64,000 nucleotides of DNA from a virus. Shown here piece by piece: positions 47,044 to 64,000 of this stretch. The stretch's first letter is position 1; each line of letters opens with the position of its first letter. The stretch is taken from positions 42,633 through 106,632 of the IMG/VR virus record IMGVR_UViG_3300029338_000356, one strand, 5' to 3'. The notes under the pieces were generated by a model. It saw only the letters and a program-made list of their open reading frames with translations. It was not told the DNA's origin and made no database searches. Made by a program: the position numbers and the translations under genes.

Positions 47044-47150
47044 ACAAAAGCGCGTGAATCACACCAACCTACAGGAAACTCTTCCCCGCGAGGGGAGGAA
47101 TCCCCCGACTTCAGTCAGGGGAGGAAGTCAAAATAAATATAAAGACTATA
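47040..47150 (+). ncRNA. omega-RNA / IS right-end-like structured region downstream of truncated tnpB
   Basis: CCCCGCGAGGGGAGGAATCCCCCGACTTCAGTCAGGGGAGGAAGTC with paired GGGGAGGAA/CCCC elements directly 3' of tnpB stop. Confidence 0.35.
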
Positions 47151-47260
47151 ACGGTTTAAAAAGACGTGTTGAGAAAAGTCTTTTCTGCCTCATTGGGGTA
47201 TCTTGTGTCTTTTTCTTAGAAGTTTCACTCTACCGATTTGCTTTGTTGTCAAAGTATATA

Positions 47261-47283
47261 TATACTGGGATTGTTCACACAAG
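47261..47283 (+). promoter_or_regulatory. conserved promoter motif copy 1 (TATACTGGGATTGTTCACACAAG)
   Basis: extended -10-like TATACT plus conserved GTTCACACA leader, 28 bp upstream of ATG 47311. Confidence 0.55.
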
Positions 47284-47310
47284 AAATAAGCGTAACAAGG
47301 AGAGTCAAAA

Positions 47311-47625
47311 ATGAACAAGCCCGCATACTTCAAGCAGTTCGGCGCAGACGACTACAACATTTTCGTAGTCAAGGACAAGTCGTATGTCATGAGTCGTTTC
47401 ACAGACGACCCCGAGGGCGTCTACTACATGCTTTTCGAGCATGTCGAGGGTCAGACCGGCGTCAGCTATTACATGTTAGACAATATTCCCGAGACTGTTT
47501 TGGATGATGTTTCCGACGGTGGATATACCGATAGGGAGTTTGCTTCGAGGATTGTCGGTCAGGATAGGTTTGTCCACAATATTCATATCCGTATGCTTCT
47601 GCGTCATTCCGCAATTGGTGCCTGA
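47311..47625 (+). CDS. small protein, family 1 (paralogue of 53811..54119)
   Basis: shared FGA.DYNIF...SYVM.R...YF.LFEH.EG..GV...M.D core. Confidence 0.5.
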   Translation: MNKPAYFKQFGADDYNIFVVKDKSYVMSRFTDDPEGVYYMLFEHVEGQTGVSYYMLDNIPETVLDDVSDGGYTDREFASRIVGQDRFVHNIHIRMLLRHSAIGA

Positions 47626-47732
47626 GTTTTTTTGGGTGGATAACGCTCTTCTTGTCTTTTGGCTGGGAGGGCGTTTTTTGTTTTCTGGGGGTTGTTTGTG
47701 TGTTTTTGGGCGTGTCGTTTTCACAGACACTA

Positions 47733-47755
47733 TATACTGGGATTGTTCACACAAA
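47733..47755 (+). promoter_or_regulatory. conserved promoter motif copy 2
   Basis: TATACTGGGATTGTTCACACAAA upstream of 47784. Confidence 0.55.
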
Positions 47756-47783
47756 AAGATAAAAGAAAACCAAGGAGCAAAAA

Positions 47784-48608
47784 ATGAGCAACATCGACAG
47801 CATCATCGAACGCATCAACAACCTCATGGCAATAGCCGAAAACGAAGCGTCCAGCGACAATGAGGCGCAAATGGCGTTCGAGCGGGCACAGAAACTCATT
47901 AACGAATATCGTATCGAAGACTGGAAACGCGACCGCACTCGTACGAACAAGCCAATCATCGAACGTGGCGTGAACGTAAGCAAAACCACCATCTACCATC
48001 AGCAAGGCTACCTTGCGGACATCATCGCCCAAGCTAACGAATGCCGCGCCTACATTCACGAAAGCCGGTGTGGCGGAAGGATTGAGGAACGTGCCGTCAT
48101 GTTCGTAGGCGAGGAGGACGATGTGAACGCCGCAGTCCTTCTCTTCCAAAGCATCGACCTATACTGCTCAGTCCACGCCCGTACTAGCTACGCGGACATG
48201 ATTGACCAGCACGCCAAAGCGTATTATGAGAACAACAAGGAATACGTCGAAACGCATTACGGACGTGAATCCTATCCGACGCTGACGGAATGCAAACAGT
48301 ACATGCGTCGTGATTATCCACGCGCCAAGTTCTACTATGGTTATCGCGGTGGATTCAACGAACGTTTGAGCGAACGTTTCGAGGAGCTTCGCAAGCAGAG
48401 CTTGGACATTCCCTCCGGTCGTGAGCTTGTGGCCAGCAAGAGCCAGCGTGTCAACGCCTATTTCGACAATCTCGAACTGAAAGCAGCTCGCGTCGCCACC
48501 GCCCGTGGTAGCAAGGCTGGGTTCGTTCGTGGTGTGAGCGACGCGAACAATGTGGGTTTAGGCTTGTCTGAAATGGGTGTTTCGTCCCACGCTTTGCTGA
48601 ATGCCTGA
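47784..48608 (+). CDS. hypothetical protein (274 aa)
   Basis: own promoter motif and downstream terminator. Confidence 0.5.
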   Translation: MSNIDSIIERINNLMAIAENEASSDNEAQMAFERAQKLINEYRIEDWKRDRTRTNKPIIERGVNVSKTTIYHQQGYLADIIAQANECRAYIHESRCGGRIEERAVMFVGEEDDVNAAVLLFQSIDLYCSVHARTSYADMIDQHAKAYYENNKEYVETHYGRESYPTLTECKQYMRRDYPRAKFYYGYRGGFNERLSERFEELRKQSLDIPSGRELVASKSQRVNAYFDNLELKAARVATARGSKAGFVRGVSDANNVGLGLSEMGVSSHALLNA

Positions 48609-48613
48609 CTTTT

Positions 48614-48656
48614 CAGCCCGCTTCCTTGCTTTGGGGAGTGGGCTGTTTTTGTTTTT
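48614..48656 (+). terminator. intrinsic terminator
   Basis: CAGCCCGCTTCCTTGCTTTGGGGAGTGGGCTG hairpin + TTTTTGTTTTT. Confidence 0.6.
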
Positions 48657-48670
48657 CACAACAAACATGG

Positions 48671-48693
48671 TATACTGGGATTGTTCACACAAA
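48671..48693 (+). promoter_or_regulatory. conserved promoter motif copy 3
   Basis: TGGTATACTGGGATTGTTCACACAAA. Confidence 0.55.
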
Positions 48694-48718
48694 AAATACC
48701 AACAAGGAGGAACAAAAA

Positions 48719-49096
48719 ATGAGGGCACGAGACGTTAGCTTCTTCAAGAAAAACGCTTGGAAGGGCACGTATTCCAGCATCCTCACCATTCCGGTTGAAG
48801 CGTTGGCCGACAAGTGTTTCAACACTTGGCTGGACATAGAGGACACGAATTTTGCGGAAGCCTCCCTACCGAACGAGAAGCTTGCCGGACGGTTCCGTGA
48901 GCTTGTCGATTCCGACGCCGAACAGGCGGAATGGGATGAATTCTATGCTTCCGTTGGCAAGGCTTTTTCCGCCATGTCGGTGGATGAACTGGCGTCCAAG
49001 TTCGTGGAGTTGAACGACCCTGCGACCATCCGTCGTGTTCTTTGGGGTTACGGGGACAAATGGTATCTCGATTCCGATTGCGAGCATGAGTTCTGA
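48719..49096 (+). CDS. small acidic protein, family 2 (paralogues 50057..50446, 61875..62258)
   Basis: shared ...W.GT.....T.PV..LAD.C.N.WLDI.D..F..A.LP...LA.RF..LV.SDA.QA.WDEFY..VG..FS..SVDELA..F.ELNDP.TI..VLW. Confidence 0.5.
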   Translation: MRARDVSFFKKNAWKGTYSSILTIPVEALADKCFNTWLDIEDTNFAEASLPNEKLAGRFRELVDSDAEQAEWDEFYASVGKAFSAMSVDELASKFVELNDPATIRRVLWGYGDKWYLDSDCEHEF

Positions 49097-49109
49097 CCGT
49101 CGGGTTTTA

Positions 49110-49146
49110 GCGCCTCTCCCTTGGGTGGGTGGGGCGCTTTTTGTTT
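49110..49146 (+). terminator. intrinsic terminator
   Basis: GCGCCTCTCCCTTGGGTGGGTGGGGCGC + TTTTTGTTT. Confidence 0.5.
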
Positions 49147-49170
49147 GGCGTGTCGTGCCCCAACATGATG

Positions 49171-49193
49171 TATACTGGAATTGTTCACACAAA
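49171..49193 (+). promoter_or_regulatory. conserved promoter motif copy 4
   Basis: TGTATACTGGAATTGTTCACACAAA. Confidence 0.55.
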
Positions 49194-49221
49194 ACATGCT
49201 TGGAAAACAAAGGGAACCAAA

Positions 49222-49710
49222 ATGATTAAGACCATCACCAGCCTCAAAATCACCACATCACACAACCTCTTCGACCGAAACGACACAATCGAATACCTCA
49301 CCATCGACTACTTGGACGAAGACGGCAACCAGAAACAAATCAAAAACCTCCCCCACGAAGAAGACGCCGGAATCTACGACGTCAAAACCGACCCTTGGGA
49401 AGACATACTCGAAGACTGGCGTCTCACAAAACCCGCCTACATCTCATCCTCGGACAAAGGCTGGGAACTGCTCGAAAACTATCTCCAACACCTCACCAGC
49501 ACCCAATCTCAAGAATTGGAGGACAGCCAGAACAAACTGTACGAAGCGGACAAGGTGGCGGATATTCTGCGCAACATCAGCCGTCTCAGCGACGTCGGCA
49601 AAGCCGCTTTCGAGGAAATGCTGAACGTTGATTCCGAAAACGTATGGGACGTGTACTCAAAACATTGGAACCGTATTACGTCGCATCGTTCAGGCAACGG
49701 GGAAGACTGA
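49222..49710 (+). CDS. hypothetical protein
   Basis: 163 aa from internal Met of ORF 49129..49710. Confidence 0.45.
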   Translation: MIKTITSLKITTSHNLFDRNDTIEYLTIDYLDEDGNQKQIKNLPHEEDAGIYDVKTDPWEDILEDWRLTKPAYISSSDKGWELLENYLQHLTSTQSQELEDSQNKLYEADKVADILRNISRLSDVGKAAFEEMLNVDSENVWDVYSKHWNRITSHRSGNGED

Positions 49711-49726
49711 GAAAAAAGGAGGAAGC

Positions 49727-49942
49727 ATGAGCGTCAAGTTCAACGGATTCGACTACATCAGCGACAACGACGGCATGGGCATTCACGTCGTCGCGGGAGC
49801 CGACGACATCTGGTTGCCGGTCGATGACCGTGAGCGTGTGAGGTTCGCACTCGCCGTGCTGGACGGGTTGGAGTCCAAAGAGCTGGATGAAGTCGCCCAT
49901 CAGTTCACCTCGGAGAGAAGACGCGGACATGGTTCGCTTTGA
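49727..49942 (+). CDS. hypothetical small protein
   Basis: 72 aa, RBS AAGGAGGAAG upstream. Confidence 0.4.
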   Translation: MSVKFNGFDYISDNDGMGIHVVAGADDIWLPVDDRERVRFALAVLDGLESKELDEVAHQFTSERRRGHGSL

Positions 49943-50003
49943 CGCCATAATGCTTTAAAAAGCGCTTGGTGGGAAGCTGGTTTGACGTTCGCGTACATTC
50001 ATA

Positions 50004-50026
50004 TATACTGGAATTGTTCACACAAA
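50004..50026 (+). promoter_or_regulatory. conserved promoter motif copy 5
   Basis: TATATACTGGAATTGTTCACACAAA. Confidence 0.55.
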
Positions 50027-50056
50027 AACAGAAAGCCATGAATAGGAGCGCAGACC

Positions 50057-50446
50057 ATGGAACACAAGACCAATGCCGTCGAAGTCAGTTTTCTGAAGAA
50101 AACCAAGTGGACGGGCACTACCACGAGAATGCTGACTTTTCCGGTAGGCGAACTGGCCGACAGGTGCTTGAACGCTTGGCTCGACATTACGGACGAAAGC
50201 TTCTCCCATGCCACACTCCCATCCACGCAACTGGCGGAACGGTTCTCCACGCTCGTGGAATCGGACGCCGACCAAGCCGCTTGGGACGAATTCTATAAAG
50301 CTGTGGGCGAGGAGTTCTCCCGCTTGTCAGTGGACGAGCTTGCCGCGTTTTTCATCGACCTGAACGACCCTTCGACCATAGTGTCCGTGCTGTGGAGCGA
50401 TGGCGAGCACGAGTTTGTGGATTCCGGTTGCGAATACCGGTATTAA
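50057..50446 (+). CDS. small acidic protein, family 2
   Basis: paralogue of 48719..49096 (see above). Confidence 0.5.
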   Translation: MEHKTNAVEVSFLKKTKWTGTTTRMLTFPVGELADRCLNAWLDITDESFSHATLPSTQLAERFSTLVESDADQAAWDEFYKAVGEEFSRLSVDELAAFFIDLNDPSTIVSVLWSDGEHEFVDSGCEYRY

Positions 50447-50463
50447 CGAAGGAAAGCACGACG

Positions 50464-50643
50464 ATGAGAACCAAAGCCAAGGAACTGCCAGCCATCCTCA
50501 CTATCGCCGACACGATGGCCTACCTCTCCTGCTCACGCCAGCACATATACGACCTGCTGAATGCCGGTCGCATACGCACCTACAAAATCGGACGACGCCG
50601 GTATATCGACGCTGACTCGCTCGCCCACCTGTTCTGGAGTTGA
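50464..50643 (+). CDS. small HTH DNA-binding protein (Xis/MerR-type excisionase-like)
   Basis: LTIADTMAYLSCSRQHIYDLLNAGRIRTYKIGRRRYI matches the excisionase/MerR-family HTH pattern. Confidence 0.5.
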   Translation: MRTKAKELPAILTIADTMAYLSCSRQHIYDLLNAGRIRTYKIGRRRYIDADSLAHLFWS

Positions 50644-50647
50644 CGTG

Positions 50648-50797
50648 ATGCCTAACGTGAACCGTGTGGTCATGTTGCCCGCCGAACTGTACCGGCTGAC
50701 CATGCAGTATGCCGAGCGACATGAAGTCTCGTGGAACGATGCGGTCAGATTGTTGGTTGAACAGGCGCTCGGAGAAGATGGGGGCGAAGACTCGTAG
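50648..50797 (+). CDS. small ribbon-helix-helix-like protein
   Basis: 49 aa: VNRVVMLPAELYRLTMQYAERHEVSWNDAVRLLVEQAL beta-alpha-alpha pattern. Confidence 0.35.
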   Translation: MPNVNRVVMLPAELYRLTMQYAERHEVSWNDAVRLLVEQALGEDGGEDS

Positions 50798-50842
50798 CCA
50801 GTATGTTCCGTGCTTGTTGTGGAGTCAGAACTTTACGTATGC

Positions 50843-50865
50843 TATACTGGAAATGTCCACATAAA
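50843..50865 (+). promoter_or_regulatory. conserved promoter motif copy 6 (degenerate)
   Basis: TGCTATACTGGAAATGTCCACATAAA. Confidence 0.45.
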
Positions 50866-50892
50866 ACAGGCGGAGCCAACCAAGGAGAACGA

Positions 50893-51201
50893 ATGAACGA
50901 CACCAAAACCTACTACCAGCCAATCTTCCACGACAACGGCACCATCAGCGTGGTCGCCGGAGACAACACCTACGACCACGCCTACGCGGACAGGCCCATG
51001 AATGAAGCTATCGTGGAAACCTCCCACAGCAAGCCCAATCCAATCAACTGGAAGCACGTCGTATCCAACTGCGACGAACGTTGGAACCTCATCAAAGGCG
51101 ACGCATGCTTGGCAGTTCTGAGCGGCAACTGGGACGTTTTCGAGAGCCGTCACGAAAACAGAATCATGCTTGTCACCCGCAAGGGAACCCGAATCCTCTG
51201 A
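50893..51201 (+). CDS. hypothetical protein
   Basis: 102 aa. Confidence 0.45.
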   Translation: MNDTKTYYQPIFHDNGTISVVAGDNTYDHAYADRPMNEAIVETSHSKPNPINWKHVVSNCDERWNLIKGDACLAVLSGNWDVFESRHENRIMLVTRKGTRIL

Positions 51202-51284
51202 CCTACACTAAAAAACTCGGGGAGAAGTGGCATCCAGACCACTTCTCCCCTCTCTCATATCCGACAAAAAGAAAGAAAATAAAT

Positions 51285-52004
51285 ATGAAGGAACGGAATA
51301 TCTCACTGGAAAACGACCTCATGATGTTAGGTCAGGAGCCAATGGATGAACCCGACTCGTCCACCACCATCGAACTGCAAGAAATCGTGAAGAAGACGGA
51401 ACGAAAAATGCTGAACCCACCGGCACCACCATTGAAATTCGAACCGAAAACAGCGGACAAGTCCACCGAAAACACCGACGAAACCGCCAGCAAGACGAGC
51501 GAGAAAACCACTTCAACAGTAAACAAAACCGCTCCGAAAGCCTACAAGCCCGCCACACGCAAAACCAACAAAACCGCACCTCCAACACCAACCCCCACCA
51601 ACCCGTACGCGCCCGTCGAATACGACTGCAACGGCAAATGGCGTCAACTGTTGACGGGAATCGCCGTCATTGGAATTCTCGTGGCGGCAATCGCATTGTT
51701 GGTAGGAGCGAAAACATGTTGGCGGTTCATCGCCGTAGGCGCATTGACCGCATTCGCCATGCTCCCGCTCTACGGCTGGTTCGACGAACTCGAACGGGAC
51801 ATGGCGGTCAAGGCAGTCGAAAAGGATTACGGGATTCGTATTCTGCAAACAAACGGAGGCAATGGACTCGCGGAAGTGCATTACATGTTCCAGCAGAATC
51901 CAACCGTCGAAGCCGGTATGGTCTCCTATGGTCATGGCTTGGCATGGTTGCGGAGCGTGGGCGGCAAGAAGATTGTCGGACGAAGGCAGCAGGTGAAAAA
52001 ATGA
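51285..52004 (+). CDS. membrane protein with T/P/K-rich N-terminal region
   Basis: two TM helices (LLTGIAVIGILVAAIALLVGA; FIAVGALTAFAMLPLYGWF). Confidence 0.45.
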   Translation: MKERNISLENDLMMLGQEPMDEPDSSTTIELQEIVKKTERKMLNPPAPPLKFEPKTADKSTENTDETASKTSEKTTSTVNKTAPKAYKPATRKTNKTAPPTPTPTNPYAPVEYDCNGKWRQLLTGIAVIGILVAAIALLVGAKTCWRFIAVGALTAFAMLPLYGWFDELERDMAVKAVEKDYGIRILQTNGGNGLAEVHYMFQQNPTVEAGMVSYGHGLAWLRSVGGKKIVGRRQQVKK

Positions 52005-52378: not shown

Positions 52379-52397
52379 GCATTTCTCTATTCTGTAC

Positions 52398-52420
52398 TAT
52401 ACTGGAACTGTTCACACAAA
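52398..52420 (+). promoter_or_regulatory. conserved promoter motif copy 7
   Basis: TACTATACTGGAACTGTTCACACAAA. Confidence 0.5.
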
Positions 52421-53366: not shown

Positions 53367-53377
53367 AAGGGGCAGCA

Positions 53378-53674: not shown

Positions 53675-53768
53675 CTAATAGTGGTAAAAATTTCCGAGTC
53701 GTGTGAATGCTTTTTGTATTTGCACGGCTTTTTGTTTTTTGCGCTTTTGCGCTTTCTCTTAAATATGA

Positions 53769-53791
53769 TATACTGGAATTGTTCACACAAA
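53769..53791 (+). promoter_or_regulatory. conserved promoter motif copy 8
   Basis: TGATATACTGGAATTGTTCACACAAA (TGn extended -10). Confidence 0.55.
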
Positions 53792-53810
53792 TATGAGAGA
53801 AAGAGCCACA

Positions 53811-54219: not shown

Positions 54220-54242
54220 TCACTTACGCTATACTGGAATTG
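54220..54242 (+). promoter_or_regulatory. conserved promoter motif copy 9
   Basis: CGCTATACTGGAATTGTTCACACAAG. Confidence 0.55.
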
Positions 54243-54273
54243 TTCACACAAGATATGCTGAGAAGGAGAAACC

Positions 54274-55239
54274 ATGGACAACGACGCAATCAACACTCTC
54301 ACCAAAAAGTGGAACGCCAACCTCGTCTACTACTTCGAGGACTTCGACAACGAAACCCACTCGCAACGACTGAGCGCATACATCGACCAGAAGCCCTTAG
54401 ACAAAATCAAGGAAGCCAACCTAATCGAACTGACCAAGGAACGCGACCGTTGGAAGCTTACCAACAAGGGAATCGACCTGCTGGAAAGCATCAAGAACAT
54501 CTACCGGAGTGGAAGAATATTTCTGCTCCCCCTACCATTCCGTCACTACTACATCAACTGCAAGTTGAAGTACAACATGAAAATCGAGGACGGAAAAATA
54601 TACGACGGACTGCGTGAAACCGTGTTGAAAGACCGGAGTCGTGACGTTCGCCGCAAAGTGGCCGACTATCTGGAATACAAGGGAAAACTCAACTACAAGA
54701 CCGCGACCAGCCTCGCCAAGGACAAAGACCCCGAACTACGCAAGCTCGCCGCAAAGCATACCGTTGCAAGCATATACTGGGAGGAAACGGATTACGACGT
54801 TATCCGCTACATGGTGGAAAACAAGCTGGCCGATAGGCTCTGCTTCGAGCATTGGGTGAAAAGCGAAGACGAAACCATCCGCGCCCTATCGGCACCGTTG
54901 GCGGAAGAAAAGGACATAGACCCATTGCTGGACTCCCTCTCCGACGAATCCGCCATCCAAGTCTTGTTTAATAATCCGGAATGGGTCAAAGGTGAGCGTG
55001 CCGTGCGCTTGTGGCGTCGCATGGGCGGGGAAAACCGCCGTTGGATTATGTCCTTTATGTGGAATGTTCCCGATTCTCTGATTGAGGAGTCGTTGGCTGA
55101 ACCTCGTAATTGGCAAATCTCTTCTCGATTGGAGGAGTATAAGAAGGCGTTGCAGACCGTGTCCCGTATGGAGCGCTTGTTTGCCAAGGGTAGTGAGATT
55201 AAACGCAAGATGCGTGCCCGTGCCGGTTTGTCCGATTGA
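54274..55239 (+). CDS. HEAT-like repeat protein, family 3
   Basis: paralogue of 52443..53366. Confidence 0.5.
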   Translation: MDNDAINTLTKKWNANLVYYFEDFDNETHSQRLSAYIDQKPLDKIKEANLIELTKERDRWKLTNKGIDLLESIKNIYRSGRIFLLPLPFRHYYINCKLKYNMKIEDGKIYDGLRETVLKDRSRDVRRKVADYLEYKGKLNYKTATSLAKDKDPELRKLAAKHTVASIYWEETDYDVIRYMVENKLADRLCFEHWVKSEDETIRALSAPLAEEKDIDPLLDSLSDESAIQVLFNNPEWVKGERAVRLWRRMGGENRRWIMSFMWNVPDSLIEESLAEPRNWQISSRLEEYKKALQTVSRMERLFAKGSEIKRKMRARAGLSD

Positions 55240-55253
55240 GGTTTGACGGAGGA

Positions 55254-55295
55254 GAAGCGGGACGCTGTTTTTGGTGTCCTGCTTCTTGTTTTTTG
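55254..55295 (+). terminator. intrinsic terminator
   Basis: GAAGCGGGACGCTGTTTTTGGTGTCCTGCTTC hairpin + TTGTTTTTT. Confidence 0.5.
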
Positions 55296-55321: not shown

Positions 55322-55344
55322 TATAGTGGAATTGTTCACACAAA
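55322..55344 (+). promoter_or_regulatory. conserved promoter motif copy 10
   Basis: TGCTATAGTGGAATTGTTCACACAAA. Confidence 0.5.
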
Positions 55345-56494: not shown

Positions 56495-56517
56495 TATACT
56501 GGAATTGTTCACACAGC
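56495..56517 (+). promoter_or_regulatory. conserved promoter motif copy 11
   Basis: TATATACTGGAATTGTTCACACAGC. Confidence 0.55.
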
Positions 56518-57625: not shown

Positions 57626-57705
57626 GTGTGGGAAGGTGGTTTTTCGTTCTTTGCACTACCCTGTTGTGTTAGAGTGAGATAGCCCACACCAAAAAAGGAA
57701 AACCA

Positions 57706-58381: not shown

Positions 58382-58414
58382 GTTTGCGTGTTGCGTTTTT
58401 CTACCCCCTTGTGT

Positions 58415-58437
58415 TATAGTGGGATTGTTCACAACAA
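58415..58437 (+). promoter_or_regulatory. conserved promoter motif copy 12
   Basis: TGTTATAGTGGGATTGTTCACAACAAA. Confidence 0.5.
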
Positions 58438-58471
58438 AAAAACAAAGACAAAACCCAAAAAGAAGGACGCA

Positions 58472-58843: not shown

Positions 58844-58851
58844 GAGAGAAC

Positions 58852-59247
58852 ATGTCCGACACTCAGAACACGTCCCGATTCTCAAACGAAGGCGTCACCT
58901 ACACGAAGCATCAGAACAATGCGGCGCTTAGCATGAGTCCCGCCGAAGATTCGACCATGCGCCGACTGGGATTCACCGACCACCGTGAGGAGTATTGGTA
59001 CCTCTGCCGTTCAGTCTCCCCCGACCATGACATGACATTGAATGTCGAGATTGCCAAGGACGGTAGCGACTGGCAGATAGACGTGTTGGACGAGAACTTC
59101 TGCCAACCCTACGACTACCAGTATTTACTCAACGTGAACCCGACGTTGGATTATCCCAACAAGGTGGCTGACGAATGCGAGAAATGGTTCCGGAAACTAT
59201 CCGAATGGGGTTTGCTACACGGCTGGCATGAGGGAATGTACGTCTGA
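58852..59247 (+). CDS. hypothetical protein
   Basis: 131 aa. Confidence 0.45.
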   Translation: MSDTQNTSRFSNEGVTYTKHQNNAALSMSPAEDSTMRRLGFTDHREEYWYLCRSVSPDHDMTLNVEIAKDGSDWQIDVLDENFCQPYDYQYLLNVNPTLDYPNKVADECEKWFRKLSEWGLLHGWHEGMYV

Positions 59248-59272
59248 AAAAACAGAAAGGAAAAACAAAAAA

Positions 59273-59542
59273 ATGAGCATTCTCAACGAAGAACTGGAAG
59301 AACGGTATCCCATCGAGGAAGGCGACTGCATCACGCTCACACGGGAACAGTTGGCGTTACAGTTGCGTCGCGCATACAAGGCGGGTGCGACCCGCGACTA
59401 TAAGCGCACTCCGCACGGGCATACGGAACTGGTGGAGATTATCGGAAACCTCCAAGACTCCCACTTATTGCCTGATGGCACGGACTTCGAGGATGTCGTA
59501 AGAACAGTTCTGGACGGGCGTGTCAAGGCCATCACCAAATAG
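59273..59542 (+). CDS. hypothetical protein
   Basis: 89 aa, RBS AAAGGAAAAACAAAAAA. Confidence 0.4.
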   Translation: MSILNEELEERYPIEEGDCITLTREQLALQLRRAYKAGATRDYKRTPHGHTELVEIIGNLQDSHLLPDGTDFEDVVRTVLDGRVKAITK

Positions 59543-59546
59543 GCGT

Positions 59547-59568
59547 TATACTAGAAACGTCCACACAT
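59547..59568 (+). promoter_or_regulatory. conserved promoter motif copy 13 (degenerate)
   Basis: CGTTATACTAGAAACGTCCACACA. Confidence 0.4.
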
Positions 59569-59592
59569 TCACTTATCCAAGGAGACCACACC

Positions 59593-60177
59593 ATGAGCTG
59601 GGACAAATACCAAAGTCGAGACCCCAGAAGAATCGACCCAATGAAAACACCACTCTACGATTACGTGGTCTTGGATACCGAAACCACCGGCTTCAAACCC
59701 GAAAACGGGGCTAAACTCATCGAAATCGGAGCCGTGAAAATCCATGACGGAAAACTCGTAGACCGATACGAGCAACTGATTGACCCACACCAGCCAATCC
59801 CCGAATACATCACCTCGCTCACCGGAATCAACGACAGCATGGTCATCGGACAACCCGACGTAAGCCAAGCCATCATCCGATTCGACAAGTGGCTTGGCCC
59901 GCGAACCATCATCATGGCGCATAACGCGTCATTCGATTTAAGTTTCTTGGACGCGGCCATGAAAACCGTGAACGGTGGAATGTTCTTCTTTCCACACCGG
60001 TTCGTGGACACGTTGGAAATGAGCCGGAAAATCCATCCCGAAAAGCCAAGCCATAAGGTTGCCGTGCTTATCCGCGACTATGGTATCGGTGACGTGGAAG
60101 AGCATCGCGCCTTGTCCGACGCGACTCAGGAAAACATGCTGTATGAAGCCATGCGCAGAGAGGAATTTGGCCGCTAA
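59593..60177 (+). CDS. DnaQ-like 3'-5' exonuclease (DEDDh, Pol III epsilon-like)
   Basis: Exo I VVLDTETTG, Exo II MAHNASFDLSFL, Exo III HRALSDA. Confidence 0.85.
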   Translation: MSWDKYQSRDPRRIDPMKTPLYDYVVLDTETTGFKPENGAKLIEIGAVKIHDGKLVDRYEQLIDPHQPIPEYITSLTGINDSMVIGQPDVSQAIIRFDKWLGPRTIIMAHNASFDLSFLDAAMKTVNGGMFFFPHRFVDTLEMSRKIHPEKPSHKVAVLIRDYGIGDVEEHRALSDATQENMLYEAMRREEFGR

Positions 60178-60435
60178 ATGGGATACGAGGACATGTTCAG
60201 TCCCGAATGCAGGGACTATCTGAAATCACGCAAGCCGTCGCAACGGGAGCGGGAGATAGCGAAGCTTGAGAAACAGGCCGACAAGAAGCATGACATGTAT
60301 GGCAACAAAACCCTCTACGAAGTCTCAGGAGAGGTTGCGACCATCTACGAAAGCCAGAAGGCGTTGCGCTTGAGGTTGGAAAGCATCGAGGAAAAACTGG
60401 ACGAACTCTTAAGGACTCAGAAAGGACTGGGGTGA
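60178..60435 (+). CDS. small coiled-coil protein
   Basis: 85 aa; start ATG shares the A of the upstream TAA stop (TAAATG at 60175-60180), so no gap between genes. Confidence 0.4.
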   Translation: MGYEDMFSPECRDYLKSRKPSQREREIAKLEKQADKKHDMYGNKTLYEVSGEVATIYESQKALRLRLESIEEKLDELLRTQKGLG

Positions 60436-61001
60436 GAAACCTTCTTACATGCCCATGCTGTAACAGCATTCCCGAATTTAAGTATCGGGCTAAATCTGAA
60501 CTCCACTGCACTTGGGACGACGAGCAATATTTTCTGCCGAAAGGTTGGGGATACTCCCACTTTTGTCCAGTGGATAATGGTTTGCAAACATCTGGCGGAG
60601 TCGGCTTCCAAACCTTGCACGACGCACAGCGCGACTGGAACTGTAAGGTTGGAAGTTTTCTCCGTAACCCGCTGAACAGTTTCCACTCGTCCATCGAGAC
60701 CGGTGCGGAACTGCTGACCGAATTAGATGATTGTTTCGTTGGGCAGCGAATTCAGCTTGGCGACCGGATATTATTGAGTCGGCGTTCTCTAACCGTTCGA
60801 GGTATCGTGCAGTTCATCCAACGGGACAGTGTTGGCGAAATCAGCGTCATCCTGCGGGATACGGACACCATCAAGTATGTGATTTATTCGCCGGTCTGGG
60901 AGCGTCGGAAGTACATGTTCTCGTATTATATCGAAAGGCGAATGCATTGGATAAAAAAGCCGAAAGGCTCCTCTGCGACGCATACCATCGTGGACGCTTA
61001 G
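60432..61001 (+). CDS. hypothetical protein with N-terminal Cys-rich (zinc-finger-like) segment
   Basis: CPCCNS...HCTWDD...HFCP. Confidence 0.4.
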   Translation: MRNLLTCPCCNSIPEFKYRAKSELHCTWDDEQYFLPKGWGYSHFCPVDNGLQTSGGVGFQTLHDAQRDWNCKVGSFLRNPLNSFHSSIETGAELLTELDDCFVGQRIQLGDRILLSRRSLTVRGIVQFIQRDSVGEISVILRDTDTIKYVIYSPVWERRKYMFSYYIERRMHWIKKPKGSSATHTIVDA

Positions 61002-61178
61002 CGGAGGTTAACGAACATAATCAGGACGCGGCTATGTCCCTTATCGATAACGGGTATGCCGACTATTGGCGTACTCTGTTGGGACACGAGGCCATCAGGC
61101 TGACCGACCACGGGCTTGGTGCCGCACGGAAACTGGAGTCGGATTACTGATTTTCCAGCGTTTTAAAGACTGGATTGT

Positions 61179-61201
61179 TATACTGGAACAGTGGGCACAA
61201 T
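61179..61201 (+). promoter_or_regulatory. conserved promoter motif copy 14 (degenerate; downstream half replaced by hairpin)
   Basis: TGTTATACTGGAACAGTGGGCACAA. Confidence 0.4.
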
Positions 61202-61222
61202 ACTGTGCCCACTGTTTTCTTA
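61189..61222 (+). terminator. perfect hairpin + T-run located between promoter motif 14 and ATG 61241 (terminator for upstream unit or 5' leader attenuator)
   Basis: CAGTGGGCACAATACTGTGCCCACTG + TTTTCTTATT. Confidence 0.45.
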
Positions 61223-61240
61223 TTCTCAGGAGGAACCGGG

Positions 61241-61501
61241 ATGACCCAGCATAGCGACAAAAGCCACAAGAATAAGAAGGTCGTGGTCATTGAGAAGGTG
61301 CGGGACAAGTATGGTTCCGTCATCGCTTTGAAGGTTGTATTGTATCGTCGGCATGATAGTGAGAATGGGAAGGTTTGGGACATGAAGCGTTCTCACACGT
61401 TCAGTGCGGCTTTCAGTCGTCGTGCTTGTAGGGAACAGGCGAAGACGTTGGCTCGTCAGTGGGCTGATAAGTATGGTGCGAAGGTTGTGAAGAGGGGGTA
61501 G
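61241..61501 (+). CDS. small basic protein
   Basis: 86 aa, K/R-rich, RBS CAGGAGGAA. Confidence 0.4.
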   Translation: MTQHSDKSHKNKKVVVIEKVRDKYGSVIALKVVLYRRHDSENGKVWDMKRSHTFSAAFSRRACREQAKTLARQWADKYGAKVVKRG

Positions 61502-61524
61502 TTGTCCTCTTTGACGGTTTATGT

Positions 61525-61547
61525 TATACTGGGGGCGTTCACATAAA
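61525..61547 (+). promoter_or_regulatory. conserved promoter motif copy 15
   Basis: TGTTATACTGGGGGCGTTCACATAAA. Confidence 0.5.
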
Positions 61548-61571
61548 GCCCAGTCGAAAAAGGAGAACACC

Positions 61572-61871
61572 ATGCAGAACATCAACCTCTACAAACTGAT
61601 GTCAAAACTGTACGCCCGTCCCGAAGTCGAGGACGCTGACATCGTGAGCTGCATGTACGAGGACGATACCCTTAAAACGGTCATGCGCAACGGCTTGGTC
61701 GTCGCCATCGGCGTGCAGGACGAATATCCAGCGGTCGCACTGTACACCATATACGCCAACGACGAGGACTACCGAAACAATGAGCCTCTGACCGAAGGCT
61801 TGCACTACGACTTCGAAGACGACCACGACTACAAGGACGGCGTGGAAGCCATCATCAAGGAGGCGTGCTGA
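61572..61871 (+). CDS. small highly acidic protein
   Basis: 99 aa, D/E/Y-rich (DEDYRNNEPLTEGLHYDFEDDHDYKDG); candidate DNA-mimic. Confidence 0.45.
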   Translation: MQNINLYKLMSKLYARPEVEDADIVSCMYEDDTLKTVMRNGLVVAIGVQDEYPAVALYTIYANDEDYRNNEPLTEGLHYDFEDDHDYKDGVEAIIKEAC

Positions 61872-61874
61872 CCC

Positions 61875-62258
61875 ATGGACACCATCATCTTCGTCAAAGA
61901 CCGCAACTGGCCCGGCACGGACAGCCGCATCTATGAGATTTCCACGGCTGATTTGGGCGCAATCTGCGTGGCCGATTGGTCGTCGCTGACGGACGGACAG
62001 TTCTCAGGCGACGTGCTCCCCGACGAGGGGCTGCGCGAACGGTATTTCACATTGTACGAACGCGAGGACGACGACCAAGCCGACTGGGACGCGTTCATCG
62101 ACGACCTCTGGCAGACCGCCGATGACATGGGCTTGGAGGGGCTGGCTGACTGGTTTGTCGAACTGAACGACCCCACCACCATCAATGCCCGCTACTGGGT
62201 GCTCGACGGCATCGAATACTTGGACGCCGCGCACACCATGCCAAGGGACGAAATGTGA
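61875..62258 (+). CDS. small acidic protein, family 2
   Basis: shares ...DW.AF...L......L.GLADWFVELNDPTTI with 48719 and 50057 genes. Confidence 0.5.
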   Translation: MDTIIFVKDRNWPGTDSRIYEISTADLGAICVADWSSLTDGQFSGDVLPDEGLRERYFTLYEREDDDQADWDAFIDDLWQTADDMGLEGLADWFVELNDPTTINARYWVLDGIEYLDAAHTMPRDEM

Positions 62259-62332
62259 CCTGTCTTATCACGGAAACCCCAAAGCCAAGCAGAAACAACC
62301 TCAACCTTCCCCTATGAAAAAGGAGTGGAGAA

Positions 62333-62743
62333 ATGACCGGTTTCATCGCCGTCGATATGCTGTCCGAAATCAGCAAGGCCCTCGAATATGAAAACGATTG
62401 GACTCAACTGAAGGACGGCGTGCTGGAATGCCGACTGCGAGACCAGTATGACGGTGAGCACACCGGACTCGCCCGCGTCACCGTAGACAAGGCGGGCAAG
62501 GTGTCCGTTATGGCATGGTCGGACAATCCGTACGAATACGCAACCATGCCCGACCCCGACTGGACACATGAATACGATTCAGCCGACCCGGAAGCCATCG
62601 CAGACGACATTTGGAACCGTTGCCCATACTGCGGGCGGGAATCCGACAAGTGCATGTGCGAACGTTGCGCGGGCTGCGGCGTCCTTCTGGACTGGAACAA
62701 CAGGGCGGAAGGCGACTACGGCTACTGCGAATACTGCCATTAG
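62333..62743 (+). CDS. hypothetical protein with C-terminal zinc-ribbon
   Basis: CPYCGRESDKCMCERCAGCG...YCEYCH. Confidence 0.45.
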   Translation: MTGFIAVDMLSEISKALEYENDWTQLKDGVLECRLRDQYDGEHTGLARVTVDKAGKVSVMAWSDNPYEYATMPDPDWTHEYDSADPEAIADDIWNRCPYCGRESDKCMCERCAGCGVLLDWNNRAEGDYGYCEYCH

Positions 62744-62761
62744 AAAAAAGGAGAAACAAAA

Positions 62762-63382
62762 ATGCTGAAAATCGAGAAGACACTGAAGGAACTGCGTGAC
62801 CTTCAAAACACCTTGCGTGAACTCGGAATCGAAATGTCCATCAAGGATGCGGATGCCGAAACGAAAAGCGATTATGAGGATGCAGCGATGACCATTGACG
62901 TATATGAGCCGTGTCGTTGTTTCGCGTGGATTGGTATGGACGGCGTGATTCACATGAGGTGGAATTCGTATCCCGATGCCTTCGCGTGGTTTCGGATGAA
63001 CCTGCTTTTGGACCTCGCTCGCGGCTACATGCTGAAAGCGGACAACATCACTAAATCGTGGACGCACCTTCGCAGGAATCTCGACGGACAAGCCGACGAA
63101 ATGCCCCTCCCCGACAAACTGGCCGGAAGGAAAGCGGAATACGAGGATACGGCAAACCGACTGCGCGACCTCATCAAAGCCGACCCGATTGCAATGGATT
63201 TATCCCCTTACGAATGCGAACGCCTTGAAAGGTTCCTCCGCGACCCGCAGAAGGAACGTCTTCTGGAGTACGACCCGGACGACCCGTTTTACAGGAACAT
63301 GTTCAACAGAGGCTTGATTGACCGCGACGGACTGACCGAACTGGGGCGAAAGGCCATGGAACATTACATTGCATCGGCCTGA
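62762..63382 (+). CDS. hypothetical protein
   Basis: 206 aa, RBS AAAGGAGAAACAAAAA. Confidence 0.45.
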   Translation: MLKIEKTLKELRDLQNTLRELGIEMSIKDADAETKSDYEDAAMTIDVYEPCRCFAWIGMDGVIHMRWNSYPDAFAWFRMNLLLDLARGYMLKADNITKSWTHLRRNLDGQADEMPLPDKLAGRKAEYEDTANRLRDLIKADPIAMDLSPYECERLERFLRDPQKERLLEYDPDDPFYRNMFNRGLIDRDGLTELGRKAMEHYIASA

Positions 63383-63523
63383 CCGTCACGTCCATGGTCG
63401 GACAATCCGTATGAATACGCAGCCTCCCGTTCGCTGAGAACCTGTTCTCGTTCGCGCGGAGCGCGGGACGCATTCAATGGACGAAAAATACATCAACCAA
63501 ACAACAAGGAAAGGAAGCATACC

Positions 63524-64000
63524 ATGCTGTTCAAGCTTGAAATAGGAGACTACTCCGAAGACGGTTACGGAGTCCATGAGCCGGTAATCTACGAGACGAA
63601 CTATGATGTCGCCGCCATCGCGGAAGGATACAAGAAGAGTTGCAAGAAGTACGGCATCCAGTTCAACCGTGGCGACAACGATTTCACGGGACTGGGGCTG
63701 AAATGCTGGGATAAACGCGCCCTCTGGTCGAACCCTGACATGGGCGCGAACTGGCTCGACGAAAAGATGTACGACCTGCTGACGCATACCGGCGTCGTGC
63801 CCGAGGAAGACATGATGCCATCCTTGTTGTCCGAAGGCAAATACCTCGCCAATTACGATAGCGAGTCCGACGAGTATGCCAACGCCATCATGAGGTTCAT
63901 CGCCCTCTCCATGCCCGATGACTTCACTTACAGAATTCAGGAGACTGAGAACATTCCGTGCCTGAATGACACGTTGGGAGTCAACCTCGGCTACGGGCTG
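63524..64000 (+). CDS. hypothetical protein (3' partial, runs off window)
   Basis: ATG 63524 preceded by GGAAAGGAAG; open to window end. Confidence 0.35.
   Translation, partial: MLFKLEIGDYSEDGYGVHEPVIYETNYDVAAIAEGYKKSCKKYGIQFNRGDNDFTGLGLKCWDKRALWSNPDMGANWLDEKMYDLLTHTGVVPEEDMMPSLLSEGKYLANYDSESDEYANAIMRFIALSMPDDFTYRIQETENIPCLNDTLGVNLGYGL

Follow-up and report, generated by a model that had tools for sequence, protein, structure and literature searches.

A 23-bp predicted promoter element recurs before accessory gene cassettes in a pMP7017-family megaplasmid of Bifidobacterium adolescentis

In the Bifidobacterium breve megaplasmid pMP7017, a 34-bp motif overlapping the -10 box (TATACT GAATATGTCCACATAAAA) has been described in 19 copies, for 56 genes (Dineen et al. 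2024, PMC10832533). This motif is absent from chromosomes, came to light at genes with high expression in an established host, and was proposed as a transcription-factor site (PMC10832533). Its promoter activity in pMP7017 rests on this literature, in which longer 5'UTRs are also reported for highly expressed genes (Dineen et al., PMC10832533). Mechanistic precedents are ArdK/CUP for a regulator (PMC6289460) and PeSL cassettes for cassette shuffling (PMC2839356), while Reg576 on p576 is a repressor-operator version of zygotic induction in Gram-positive plasmids (PMC6294495).

The window, a 64,000-nt stretch of an IMG/VR record, comes from a B. adolescentis megaplasmid of ~220 kb that belongs to the pMP7017 family. 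The backbone is syntenic with that of pMP7017 (50-60% at the amino acid level), exact protein matches carry the name B. adolescentis and lie on 221-223 kb contigs, and positions 52765-64000 have 99.7% identity to the overlapping part of a 221-kb NCBI contig. The conjugation/partition/RepA block syntenic with pMP7017 occupies 1-27 kb, on the opposite strand to the gene array described here. A dnaB module, an SPFH gene, a pilin/sortase/giant-adhesin cluster, a reverse transcriptase (RT) and a truncated TnpB lie between the two, so that the placement of the array next to a T4SS/Rep backbone in the earlier note was imprecise.

The array consists of about 35 plus-strand genes, most with net acidic products, and runs on past the window end for at least 10 kb with at least four additional motif copies, keeping a single gene direction over >27 kb. 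Its description as unidirectional small genes with acidic products and paralogue families was borne out (genes at 47311 and 53811; 48719, 50057 and 61875; 52443 and 54274). The expected DnaQ exonuclease and GNAT were confirmed by a DEDDh/RNase T domain at 59593 and a GNAT domain at 57926, and HTH_17 (50464) and DUF2786/DUF7168 (47784) were confirmed as well. The 50648 protein has no Pfam support as an RHH. Where five terminator-like hairpins had been listed, strong terminators were found at three sites, plus a leader hairpin. Structural comparison with PDB and BFVD gave no neighbour for the model of the three-paralogue acidic family.

Exact and 3-mismatch searches with a PWM scan found 14 full plus-strand copies of TATACTGGAATTGTTCACACAAA within 47.2-61.6 kb (Table 1); none is expected by chance, and shuffled sequence gives 0-1 PWM matches. 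Fifteen had been listed, one of them at 54220 that actually lies at 54230, and one, at 61179, that shares the first 11 nt only. All 14 are intergenic, on the same strand as the gene and upstream of an RBS and an ATG or TTG, as had been claimed, and the distance from motif end to start codon is 19-34 nt for every copy. The first 11 are nearly identical; the distal ones drift towards the pMP7017 type. Three further copies lie in the window outside the array. When the whole window is scanned, minus-strand copies exist, but copies are always co-oriented with the next gene.

Table 1. Motif copies, terminators and selected genes in the window
Feature	Position	Strand	Remarks
Minus-strand motif copy	2637..2659	-	upstream of minus-strand gene 2236-2607; pMP7017 orthologue has copy at 35174(-)
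Minus-strand motif copy	26861..26883	-	upstream of gene for 58-aa two-TM protein (26814-26641), whose homologue is the first gene after the pMP7017 copy at 147926
Weak motif copy (PWM 18.5)	31290..31312	+	between dnaB and SPFH gene 31329-32726
Truncated TnpB remnant (N-terminal loss; IS200/IS605 family)	46132..47043	+	left bound of array
Motif copy 1 (TATACTGGGATTGTTCACACAAG)	47261..47283	+	predicted promoter of 47311-47625
Motif copy 2	47733..47755	+	predicted promoter of DUF2786/DUF7168 gene 47784-48608; pMP7017 orthologue also motif-driven
Intrinsic terminator	48614..48645	+	ends DUF2786 cassette, 26 nt upstream of copy 3
Motif copy 3	48671..48693	+	predicted promoter of acidic paralogue 48719-49096
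Motif copy 4, perfect consensus	49171..49193	+	predicted promoter of 49222-49710, 49727-49942
Motif copy 5, perfect	50004..50026	+	predicted promoter of 50057-50446 (acidic paralogue), 50464-50643 (HTH_17), 50648-50797
Acidic 129-aa protein	50057..50446	+	one of three paralogues (with 48719-49096, 61875-62258); confident model, pLDDT 93.6
Motif copy 6, pMP7017-like variant GTCCACATAAA	50843..50865	+	predicted promoter of 50893-51201 and downstream membrane-protein ORFs
Motif copy 7	52398..52420	+	predicted promoter of wHTH/HEAT-like gene 52443-53366, 53378-53674
wHTH + HEAT-like solenoid protein, 307 aa	52443..53366	+	most widely shared cassette
Intrinsic terminator	53696..53730	+	ends cassette 7, upstream of copy 8
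Motif copy 8, perfect	53769..53791	+	predicted promoter of 53811-54119 (47311 paralogue)
Motif copy 9	54230..54252	+	predicted promoter of wHTH/HEAT-like paralogue 54274-55239
wHTH/HEAT-like paralogue	54274..55239	+	30% identity to 52443-53366
Intrinsic terminator	55252..55287	+	ends cassette 9, upstream of copy 10
Motif copy 10, -10 = TATAGT	55322..55344	+	predicted promoter of 55373-55630, 55677-56039, 56050-56424
Motif copy 11	56495..56517	+	predicted promoter of 56546-56800 and small genes up to GNAT 57926-58381
Motif copy 12, degenerate	58415..58437	+	predicted promoter of 58472-58843, 58852-59247, 59273-59542
Motif copy 13, degenerate GTCCACAC	59547..59569	+	predicted promoter of DEDDh exonuclease 59593-60177; pMP7017 orthologue (56% aa) also motif-driven
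Half motif, -10/discriminator only (TATACTGGAAC)	61179..61218	+	followed by 15-bp-stem hairpin and T-run (61185-61218), 5'UTR of 61241-61501 (basic, 86-aa product)
Motif copy 14, degenerate	61525..61547	+	predicted promoter of 61572-61871, 61875-62258 and onward

A total of 26 PWM matches were found all round pMP7017, on both strands and in the same register as in the window. They precede orthologues of window genes (DUF2786, the exonuclease, the 2236-2607 gene and the wHTH/HEAT family), and the same motif occurs before ssb, in orphan methyltransferase regions and at a Lar-containing operon. Expression of the pMP7017 motif-driven genes ranges from high down to below threshold. The window motif is the same element as that published for pMP7017, in the same register. 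The common control proposed in the earlier note matches the published reading of pMP7017 (PMC10832533).

The module comprises a -10 TATACT and a 17-bp family-specific block from the discriminator to about +11, which is GGAATTGTTCACACAAA in this plasmid and GAATATGTCCACATAAA in pMP7017. A weak -35 (TTGnGT) is seen with a 17-bp spacer; TGn is frequent, although the supposed extended -10 is seen in roughly half of the copies only. Conservation spans exactly 23 bp, from the -10 to about +11, with information content falling sharply on either side (251 unique contexts), and the untranscribed discriminator GG at -6/-5 is as well conserved as the transcribed part. The downstream half was never found without the -10 half. 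Across the family the distance from motif to start codon varies (10-80 nt, median 28 nt), whereas that to the -10 is fixed. The sequence pattern supports the motif as a promoter in which the -10 TATACT is fused to an invariant stretch across the predicted start site.

The exact 22-mer occurs in IMG/VR contigs of 100-217 kb (98 stretches) and has no match in 185,579 reference genomes. When cassettes are paired by their coding sequence, 12 of 14 show motif differences at ~3-4% of sites, compared with 25% for the 5'UTR, 33% for the upstream sequence and 8% for the CDS, so that the block is more conserved than coding sequence, although selection of the IMG/VR loci by exact motif match inflates apparent conservation and the pairing mitigates this only partly. 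Read by eye, a dyad TATGT-CC-ACATA in pMP7017 is reduced to TGT-N2-ACA here. The block in this clade is not a clear palindrome, which counts against its being a regulator site.

Between related plasmids, the motif also marks the edges of promoter-gene cassettes that have been deleted, swapped or reordered. Of 174 homology breakpoints, 89 are no more than 40 nt from a motif (7.6% expected), or 20 of 62 when unique breakpoints are counted (p = 2e-8), with the caveat that BLAST reports breaks at intergenic repeats also when flanking cassettes merely differ. On the left, homology begins precisely at motif starts, and on the right it stops precisely at motif ends, as expected from recombination between repeats, which would be the shuffling mechanism. 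Explicit cassette deletions and reorderings are seen in five loci (L059, L016, L055, L080 and L026).

The array probably lies in an accessory region in which the 23-bp element is a pMP7017-family promoter module, defining both a plasmid-wide regulon and a unit of cassette variation. Each cassette would be driven by a housekeeping-sigma -10 box fused to the family-specific 17-bp block, with a predicted regulon of 17 or more promoters in the window and 27 or more in a relative. As its position is fixed to the -10 and start site and not to the RBS, the block most likely acts at transcription initiation. Its likeliest form would be a binding site for a putative plasmid-encoded regulator, through which dozens of accessory genes would be switched together. 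We infer the existence, sign and identity of this regulator; by analogy with Reg576/p576 and ArdK/CUP, repression might lapse briefly after entry into a new cell. Against tight steady-state repression stands the finding of the pMP7017 motif at genes that are highly expressed in an established host. Promoter, gene(s) and terminator would together form the unit of variation, with cassettes lost, gained and reordered. The wHTH/HEAT family is a weak candidate for the regulator. It is motif-driven in both clades, with only 24% identity between them (a remote homologue of 52443-53366 lies at 79231-80163 in pMP7017), and no other motif-driven family shared by the clades has a fold of the DNA-binding type; its wHTH domain is net acidic.

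It is possible, though doubtful, that there is no dedicated regulator and that the motif is a strong portable promoter-terminator boundary, kept uniform by recombination or gene conversion and by selection for mobility. PeSL is a precedent (PMC2839356), pMP7017 motif genes are highly expressed (PMC10832533), terminators lie directly upstream of motifs, and breakpoints fall exactly at motif ends, with cassettes reordered or deleted. The near-identity of the first 11 copies, with distal ones drifting to the pMP7017 type, could stem in large part from recent duplication or gene conversion and not from regulator binding. The GG(G/A)A that follows the -10 is similar to a discriminator reported by Feklistov in 2006 to strengthen -35-poor promoters. 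However, the core GTYCACAYAAA is kept between clades with ~50% protein identity, a pattern that gene conversion inside a single plasmid could not produce, conservation continues for 11 nt beyond the predicted start, a stretch in which a generic promoter has no requirements, and motif-driven expression in pMP7017 spans high to below threshold. That reach into the transcribed region would also suit RNA-level control, in which the first ~11 nt (GUUCACACAAA) are a shared 5' tag read by a plasmid RNA-binding protein, an sRNA or an RNase pathway to set stability or translation. We regard this as distinctly unlikely. The leaders are A-rich and apparently unstructured when read by eye, and highly expressed pMP7017 genes have longer 5'UTRs (PMC10832533), but the untranscribed GG at -6/-5 is equally conserved, the distance to RBS and start codon is variable, every match in the window is a promoter copy with no complementary sequence among them, and no Rfam family matches.

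The earlier note took the array for the leading region of a conjugative plasmid, an anti-defence island; on such a reading, its genes would fire in a burst when the DNA enters the recipient. The single direction over >27 kb, the many small acidic proteins of unassigned function, paralogue expansion and high turnover would fit, as would the pMP7017 motif before ssb and in regions that carry Lar and orphan methyltransferases; an excess of such genes on a single strand is typical of leading regions (PMC11541004), and repressor-operator zygotic induction is known from Gram-positive plasmids (PMC6294495). This reading nevertheless seems unlikely. Motif promoters occur all round pMP7017 on both strands and elsewhere in the window, and thus do not mark one region; the array is ~29 kb from the conjugation block, with replication, pilus/adhesin, RT and IS genes between; and in pMP7017 the motif genes are transcribed when the host is an established one (PMC10832533). 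No oriT or relaxase was detected, nor any mention of them in the searched literature on the pMP7017 family, pMP7017 is typed non-mobilizable (MOB-suite), and no long hairpins of Frpo-like ssDNA promoters were seen. The RepA-like protein, considered as a relaxase, carries RepA_C instead. An anti-defence repertoire likewise fails to emerge, as array genes have no ArdA/Ocr/Acr/KlcA/Ssb/PsiB match in Pfam, PHROGs, PADLOC or NCBIfam, and the best candidate has no neighbour in PDB or BFVD. That the replicon is a jumbo phage with repeated early promoters in an early-gene region is very improbable: the 98 motif-bearing stretches do come from 'viral' contigs, and phage homologues (phrog_421, phrog_5931) and a downstream RNA ligase and DUF3310 are present, but large ORFs have no capsid, portal, terminase or tail match, 50,697 phage records hold no DNA match, and the backbone, including ParA, RepA_C and a large ATPase/membrane-protein block, is colinear with that of pMP7017, for which conjugation is experimentally established. 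Just as remote is a MITE-like element or integron-like attachment site, suggested by the many copies at cassette boundaries, since orientation always follows the downstream gene at a fixed position before the RBS, terminal inverted repeats and target duplications are lacking, the array is flanked by the RT, uncharacterised ORFs and truncated TnpB with no integrase, and pMP7017 copies are scattered and not in one array behind an integrase.

The preferred reading, a plasmid-wide promoter module, does not amount to the unexplored regulatory logic first supposed, as the motif class was already described for pMP7017 (PMC10832533). New in this analysis are the exact 23-bp block, the cassette-boundary role and the weak regulator candidate. 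The core GTYCACAYAAA is common to the window clade and the pMP7017 clade, although their backbones are only ~50% identical in protein.

The 23-bp promoter element that recurs in the window, here called the motif, consists of a TATACT -10 box to which a GTCCACATAAA-type block of 17 bp is attached in a fixed register. A search for TATACTGGAATTGTTCACACAAA with up to three mismatches allowed gave 11 plus-strand matches between 47261 and 56495 and one minus-strand match at 26861, with none expected in shuffled sequence. A PWM scan, which yields none or one in shuffled sequence, added degenerate copies at 58415, 59547 and 61525 within the array of small plus-strand genes, as well as copies at 2637 (minus strand) and 31290 (plus strand, weak) beyond the region to which the earlier note had assigned the motif. 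The repetition described there is confirmed by both searches, and most of the positions listed for it are correct; 54220 is to be replaced by 54230, and the site at 61179 shares TATACTGGAAC only. Every true copy lies, as had been claimed, upstream of an RBS and start codon on the same strand: the motif ends 19-34 nt before the start codon in the 14 array copies (family-wide median 28 nt), and all 17 window copies are co-oriented with a gene whose translation start is less than about 60 bp downstream. This constant orientation, in repeats that are direct and unstructured, does not resemble a MITE, and with no integrase nearby such repeats do not fit an integron cassette site either. The motif is, however, restricted neither to one strand nor to one region.

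High information content is confined to exactly 23 bp, with a sharp fall on both sides, across 251 unique contexts from 814 kb of related loci. Upstream of the block, conservation amounts to a partial TGn and, beyond a 17-bp spacer, a weak TT at the -35 position. When orthologous cassettes (a motif promoter, its gene or genes and a terminator) were matched by coding sequence and not by motif, the motif diverged at about 3-4 % of sites in 12 of the 14, compared with 8 % for coding sequence, 25 % for the next 22 nt of 5'UTR and 33 % upstream in the same cassettes; in the other two, the gene sometimes lacks a motif copy of its own. The 17-bp block, at -6 to +11, is invariant in 14 to more than 27 promoters, and its conservation exceeds that of the CDS; for a 204-kb relative, at least 27 distinct copies were counted in 40 kb of available sequence. 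Beyond chance-level matches, the downstream half TGTTCACACAAA was not found without the -10 half. It keeps a fixed distance to the -10 box and lies anywhere from 10 to 80 nt from the start codon, and thus its function appears tied to transcription initiation or the extreme 5' end rather than to translation initiation. The exact 22-mer, searched as an exact pattern, has no match in 185,579 species-representative genomes.

A motif of this kind has been described in pMP7017, a conjugative megaplasmid of Bifidobacterium breve that is related to the window replicon. According to the accessible text of Dineen et al. (2024, PMC10832533), RNA-seq mapping of pMP7017 promoters revealed a conserved 34-bp promoter motif, initially at six genes with high expression and later at 13 further sites. 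By their prediction, 56 genes (24 % of coding capacity) are under this motif, which should be lacking in bifidobacterial chromosomes and occur in related plasmids; it was proposed to be a transcription-factor site. Our PWM scan of pMP7017 gave 26 copies, on both strands and all round the plasmid. In an ungapped alignment with these and the published motif, the window consensus has the same -10 hexamer TATACT and a downstream block in the same register, with 12 of 17 downstream positions identical and a shared core TATACTGnAnnTGTyCACAyAAA; the other five positions differ (GGAATTGTTCACACAAA versus GAATATGTCCACATAAA). Weak copies in the window plasmid carry the pMP7017 states (C14, T19), and Y seems to be tolerated at both positions. 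In both plasmids, which belong to one family with a syntenic backbone, the motif precedes an RBS and start, occurs in many copies on both strands and is absent from chromosomes. Several orthologous genes stand behind it in both (DUF2786/DUF7168, an exonuclease, the 2236-2607 gene and a wHTH/HEAT family), and further pMP7017 copies precede ssb, an LPD28 gene, cas genes and the tRNA/tmRNA region beside repB.

The two differ in host and clade, the window plasmid being from Bifidobacterium adolescentis, with about 50-60 % amino acid identity in the backbone. The window plasmid does not conserve the AWAYATGY part upstream or the conserved leader/RBS known from pMP7017, and it has, unlike pMP7017, 14 copies crowded into 15 kb on one strand. 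Because of the shared core and the pMP7017 copies before orthologues, the window element is counted as a known kind and not as a new class. Judged by sequence, it belongs to the motif class published in 2024, and what is new is its occurrence in another host species, on a plasmid that branches deeply within the family; no description of B. adolescentis megaplasmids was found in the literature searched. The window sites are predicted to be active promoters; for pMP7017, such activity is known from RNA-seq. Three things are added to the published motif: a 23-bp functional core, defined by its conservation across the deep split between plasmid clades; a role at cassette boundaries, of which no description was found in the accessible text of PMC10832533; and a shortlist of motif-driven proteins shared by both clades.

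The replicon itself is a megaplasmid. Its exact DnaB and exonuclease proteins are entered at NCBI under Bifidobacterium adolescentis, on contigs of 221-223 kb, and contig JBCOYV010000005.1 of GCA_040917845.1 is 99.7 % identical to window 52765-64000; there the same-strand array runs at least 10 kb further, with at least four additional, more degenerate motif copies. A phage origin is rejected, as the array DNA matches no phage record, no phage structural genes were found in the window, and its first 31 kb are colinear with pMP7017 34.8-60 kb (proteins 50-60 % identical). The only match of the array DNA is 520 bp at 93 % identity to two 198-kb plasmids of Bifidobacterium longum. The exact DnaB is indexed in 99 blocks of a public assembly collection, the carriers shown being gut-metagenome scaffolds of about 90-220 kb. 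About 40 IMG/VR contigs filed as viral (100-217 kb, among the stretches labelled L002-L099) carry the motif and the same cassettes and, judging from the window, are probably Bifidobacterium megaplasmids that have been misfiled.

The array had been placed next to a T4SS/Rep backbone, which is imprecise, since dnaB, SPFH, pilin/sortase/adhesin, reverse transcriptase and TnpB genes lie between that backbone and the array (see table). No known RNA families or tRNAs were found within the window.

Features of the window within and around the array
Feature	Position (strand)	Details
pMP7017-colinear block	first 31 kb	ParA, RepA_C protein, 886-aa ATPase, 1334-aa membrane protein, dnaB and neighbours
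DUF1524/GmrSD_C-type nuclease	3042-4067 (-)	type IV restriction-like; 51 % identity with pMP7017 36335-37315, itself preceded by a motif copy (37478-)
TnpB, full	4093-5355	in the place of that pMP7017 motif copy
Two-transmembrane protein, 58 aa	26641-26814 (-)	first gene behind a minus-strand motif copy; pMP7017 counterpart 38-41 % identical, also first behind a copy (147926)
587-aa protein	27786-29549	upstream of dnaB; C-terminal residues 320-584 match phrog_5931 and actinophage "ParB-like nuclease domain" proteins
Antisense ORF	32807-34795 (-)	longer than the pilin gene and overlapping it; probably spurious
Pilus/adhesin cluster	32906-42005
Pilin	32906-34636	GramPos_pilinBB and SpaA domains
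Sortase	34772-35677
RCC1/SdrD-B surface protein (adhesin)	35677-41061	1794 aa
DUF6273 protein	40947-42005
ORF flanking reverse transcriptase	42078-42593	no family match
Reverse transcriptase	42985-44214	just upstream of array; closest to group II intron RT/maturase (88.6 versus a 300-bit cut-off); weak DRT and retron matches
ORF flanking reverse transcriptase	44539-46154	no family match
TnpB, truncated	46132-47043	N-terminus missing; between backbone block and array
Overlapping ORFs in different frames	51342-52004 (+), 51716-52378 (+)	both with hydrophobic stretches; ambiguous gene model in 51081-52378, possibly a frameshift or programmed overlap
Inverted repeat	57341-57390	22-nt arms, 91 % complementary, 6-nt loop, no clear T-run; lies across the end of gene 57014-57343 and precedes gene 57410-57625

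Motif copies also coincide with the points at which the array has been rearranged. Relative to related contigs, 89 of 174 homology breakpoints fall within 40 nt of a motif centre (7.6 % expected), as do 20 of 62 unique breakpoints (p = 2e-8). Left breakpoints fall exactly at the motif starts 47261, 47733, 49171, 50004, 52398 and 54230, and right breakpoints at the motif ends 49193, 52420, 53789/53802 and 54251. Among the related contigs, L059 has the DUF2786 cassette joined straight to the 54230 cassette, L016 joins 47798 to 52398 and 53802 to 54230 with the motif as the overlap, and L055, L080, L026 and L004 have the 49171 and 48705 cassettes in reverse order. Motif copies 3, 8 and 10 are each preceded, at a distance of 26-40 nt, by a strong terminator (48614, 53696 and 55252), and the genes behind them are small and without assigned function. 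All three terminators close cassettes, and a hairpin at 61185-61218 lies within a 5'UTR. The breakpoints at motifs, together with the deletions and reorderings, indicate that the array is a hyperplastic region of promoter-gene(s)-terminator units. The motif bounds exchangeable cassettes, suggesting how these megaplasmids renew their accessory genes.

Some units depart from this plan. The promoter of the 61179-61501 unit keeps the -10/discriminator TATACTGGAAC without the downstream block, and its terminator-like hairpin (15-bp stem plus T-run) precedes gene 61241-61501, which encodes the sole strongly basic small protein of the array (86 aa, K+R 22 versus D+E 8); the unit may represent an attenuator in the leader, or a DNA/RNA binder under independent control. 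In the region corresponding to 48705-49676 in L055, L080, L026, L004 and L050, the gene starting at 48719 stands second behind a 49222-like gene (about 71 % identity) and lacks a motif of its own, so the same gene can be promoter-equipped or not. Single cassettes seem, from sequence identities, to have moved recently between clades. A 115-aa acidic protein of pMP7017 (187428-187775) is 84-89 % identical to its B. adolescentis-clade counterparts (L048 from about 4142 onward, L073, L006, L086 and others), in contrast to the 50-60 % or so of backbone proteins, and window 62243-62764 (gene 62333-62743) has 93 % DNA identity to the B. longum plasmids.

Most of the roughly 35 array genes, which span 47.3-63.4 kb on the plus strand, encode net acidic proteins, and only five have a homologue in pMP7017. 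Named by their start coordinates, 47311 and 53811, 48719, 50057 and 61875, and 52443 and 54274 form paralogue sets; for the three-member acidic family, fold searches gave no PDB or BFVD structural match. Pfam supports a GNAT protein, a DEDDh/RNase T exonuclease, HTH_17 and DUF2786/DUF7168. The GNAT and exonuclease assignments of the earlier note therefore stand, and its RHH protein (50648) has no Pfam support.

That note read the array as an anti-defence island in the leading region of a conjugative plasmid. Such islands occupy the first 30 or so ORFs on the leading side of oriT, carry recognised anti-defence, SOS-inhibition and ssb genes, and are associated with Frpo/ssi-type single-strand promoter hairpins (Samuel & Burstein 2024, PMC11541004). 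All of the approximately 35 array genes, and at least 10 kb beyond, are indeed on the plus strand, but the scans of the window and pMP7017 spread the motif beyond one region or strand, the inverted-repeat scan yielded short hairpins or terminators and nothing Frpo-like, and the array proteins have no anti-defence, SOS-inhibition, SSB or PsiB match in Pfam, PHROGs, PADLOC or NCBIfam. PDB sequence searches and two fold searches, the latter covering one protein family, were also negative for anti-defence homology. The island as proposed is thus unsupported and appears unlikely. A milder version, in which an establishment regulon is scattered over the plasmid, fits the single orientation, small acidic proteins, paralogue expansion and rapid cassette turnover, as well as the ssb, Lar and methyltransferase genes of the pMP7017 regulon. 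A relaxase/oriT search located no transfer origin in the window or in pMP7017: the RepA-like protein, considered as a relaxase, is RepA_C, the large pMP7017 ORFs beside FtsK-like proteins have no Pfam relaxase domain, and the pMP7017-family literature searched makes no mention of either element in its accessible text. MOB-suite classes pMP7017 as non-mobilizable, although it conjugates.

The motif is best described as a promoter module made up of a housekeeping-type -10 box with a weak -35 and a fixed downstream block, co-oriented with genes and distributed plasmid-wide. The 17-bp block (-6 to about +11) most likely binds a plasmid-encoded factor through which the motif set is jointly controlled. 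The common control suggested in the earlier note is supported and matches what is published for pMP7017. Tight repression, or a repressor that is a simple dimer, is disfavoured by three observations: the genes at which the pMP7017 motif was first found are highly expressed in an established host (PMC10832533), the pMP7017 dyad TATGT-CC-ACATA shrinks, as read by eye, to TGT-N2-ACA in the window clade, and Y is tolerated. An argument from operator-regulator co-evolution is weakened because weak copies here carry the pMP7017 states. A LexA/Cheo-box reading of GAATTGTTC was rejected by eye, as the spacing misfits GAAC-N4-GTTC, and an sRNA complementary to the leader was rejected because no extra matches were found.

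No regulator of the motif is named in the accessible text of PMC10832533 or in other searched literature containing the sequence. An autoregulated factor is expected to be motif-driven in both clades, and candidates are therefore the families found first behind the motif in both: DUF2786/DUF7168, a 120-aa acidic protein, the exonuclease, a 58-69-aa two-TM protein and a 305-320-aa wHTH/HEAT family. This compact set provides the regulator and effector candidates. The 58-69-aa proteins are membrane proteins and were set aside as regulators; the 58-aa window member is a conserved tiny membrane protein of the motif regulon. The wHTH/HEAT family (52443, 54274 and pMP7017 79231-80163) is the only one with a DNA-binding-type domain, and its N-terminal fold is MarR-like. 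Among array cassettes, its own is shared most widely; every copy found lies directly behind a high-scoring motif (in loci ascertained through the motif), and the motif of the pMP7017 gene is one of that plasmid's two top-scoring copies. Table S1 of Dineen et al. (PMC10832533) lists B7017_p0103 under a DtxR-family KO; counting of locus tags would make this the 79231-80163 gene. The wHTH domain is net acidic (-3 to -6), and no relatives were found in reference genomes, the family being confined to these megaplasmids. It is a weak candidate, quite improbable as the regulator of the motif.

Among other candidates, HTH_17 (50464), the RHH-looking 50648 protein and the basic 61241 protein lack homologues in pMP7017, and the annotated HTH, ImmA-neighbour and WhiB proteins of pMP7017 have no counterparts in the window or the 814 kb of related loci, bar one edge match. 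The 587-aa protein at 27786-29549 was also considered, as a candidate KorB-like global regulator; in pMP7017 the homologue of its C-terminal half is a separate gene downstream of dnaB, and in the window this half is fused to a novel N-terminal half.

A more far-reaching and rather doubtful proposal is that the module is operator and recombination handle at once. A plasmid factor, possibly wHTH/HEAT, would curb more than 25 promoters, which would fire briefly on entry into a naive Bifidobacterium, and the identical modules would let related megaplasmids swap cassettes that bring their own promoter, making up a fast-evolving establishment/anti-defence island that includes the three-paralogue acidic family. 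Bifidobacterial megaplasmids are common in the human gut, and about a quarter of the coding capacity of pMP7017 lies behind the motif (PMC10832533). Should the cassettes prove to encode establishment or anti-defence functions, they would offer new inhibitors and could ease the poor genetic tractability of bifidobacteria.

Shared promoter elements are known from other plasmids. In Bacillus p576, transfer is followed by transient derepression of four establishment-gene promoters that share the operator of one autoregulated repressor, Reg576 (Val-Calvo et al. 2018, PMC6294495). As here, several promoters of small, mostly uncharacterised plasmid genes are under one shared element, and coordinated control by one plasmid-encoded, autoregulated factor is likewise proposed for the motif. 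Reg576 is, however, experimentally defined and has a dual TTATCCC heptamer operator, whereas the window block is a 17-bp, asymmetric, putative operator; p576 has four promoters against 17 to more than 27 here, and there is no sequence relationship. The CUP (conserved upstream) repeats of IncN plasmids, bound by ArdK (Delver & Belogurov 1997, as cited in PMC6289460), are also repeated promoter-region elements before several plasmid genes with a single plasmid repressor. They lie in a leading region that has been mapped, on a Gram-negative plasmid, and the genes under their control, ardA and ardB, are known anti-restriction genes, while the motif is plasmid-wide and the array has no known anti-restriction gene.

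Two further systems come from phages. The stoperators of cluster A mycobacteriophages (L5 gp71 sites) are dozens of short asymmetric sites, oriented with transcription and specific to one actinobacterial mobile-element lineage; they are found inside operons, away from promoters, where they block elongation. The motif resembles them in number, asymmetry, orientation and lineage specificity, but is always joined to a -10 box. The PeSL cassettes of T4-type phages are units of a conserved promoter and a terminator stem-loop (Arbiol et al. 2010, PMC2839356; Comeau et al. 2014, PMC4122927). They too flank small ORFan genes in hyperplastic regions, with indel and replacement breakpoints at the repeats. 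They differ in belonging to a phage replicon, whereas the window replicon is a plasmid in which the conserved part is the -10-to-+11 block and the terminators are not conserved in sequence. The array cassettes would therefore be an analogue of PeSL rather than a member of that class, though one that parallels it closely.
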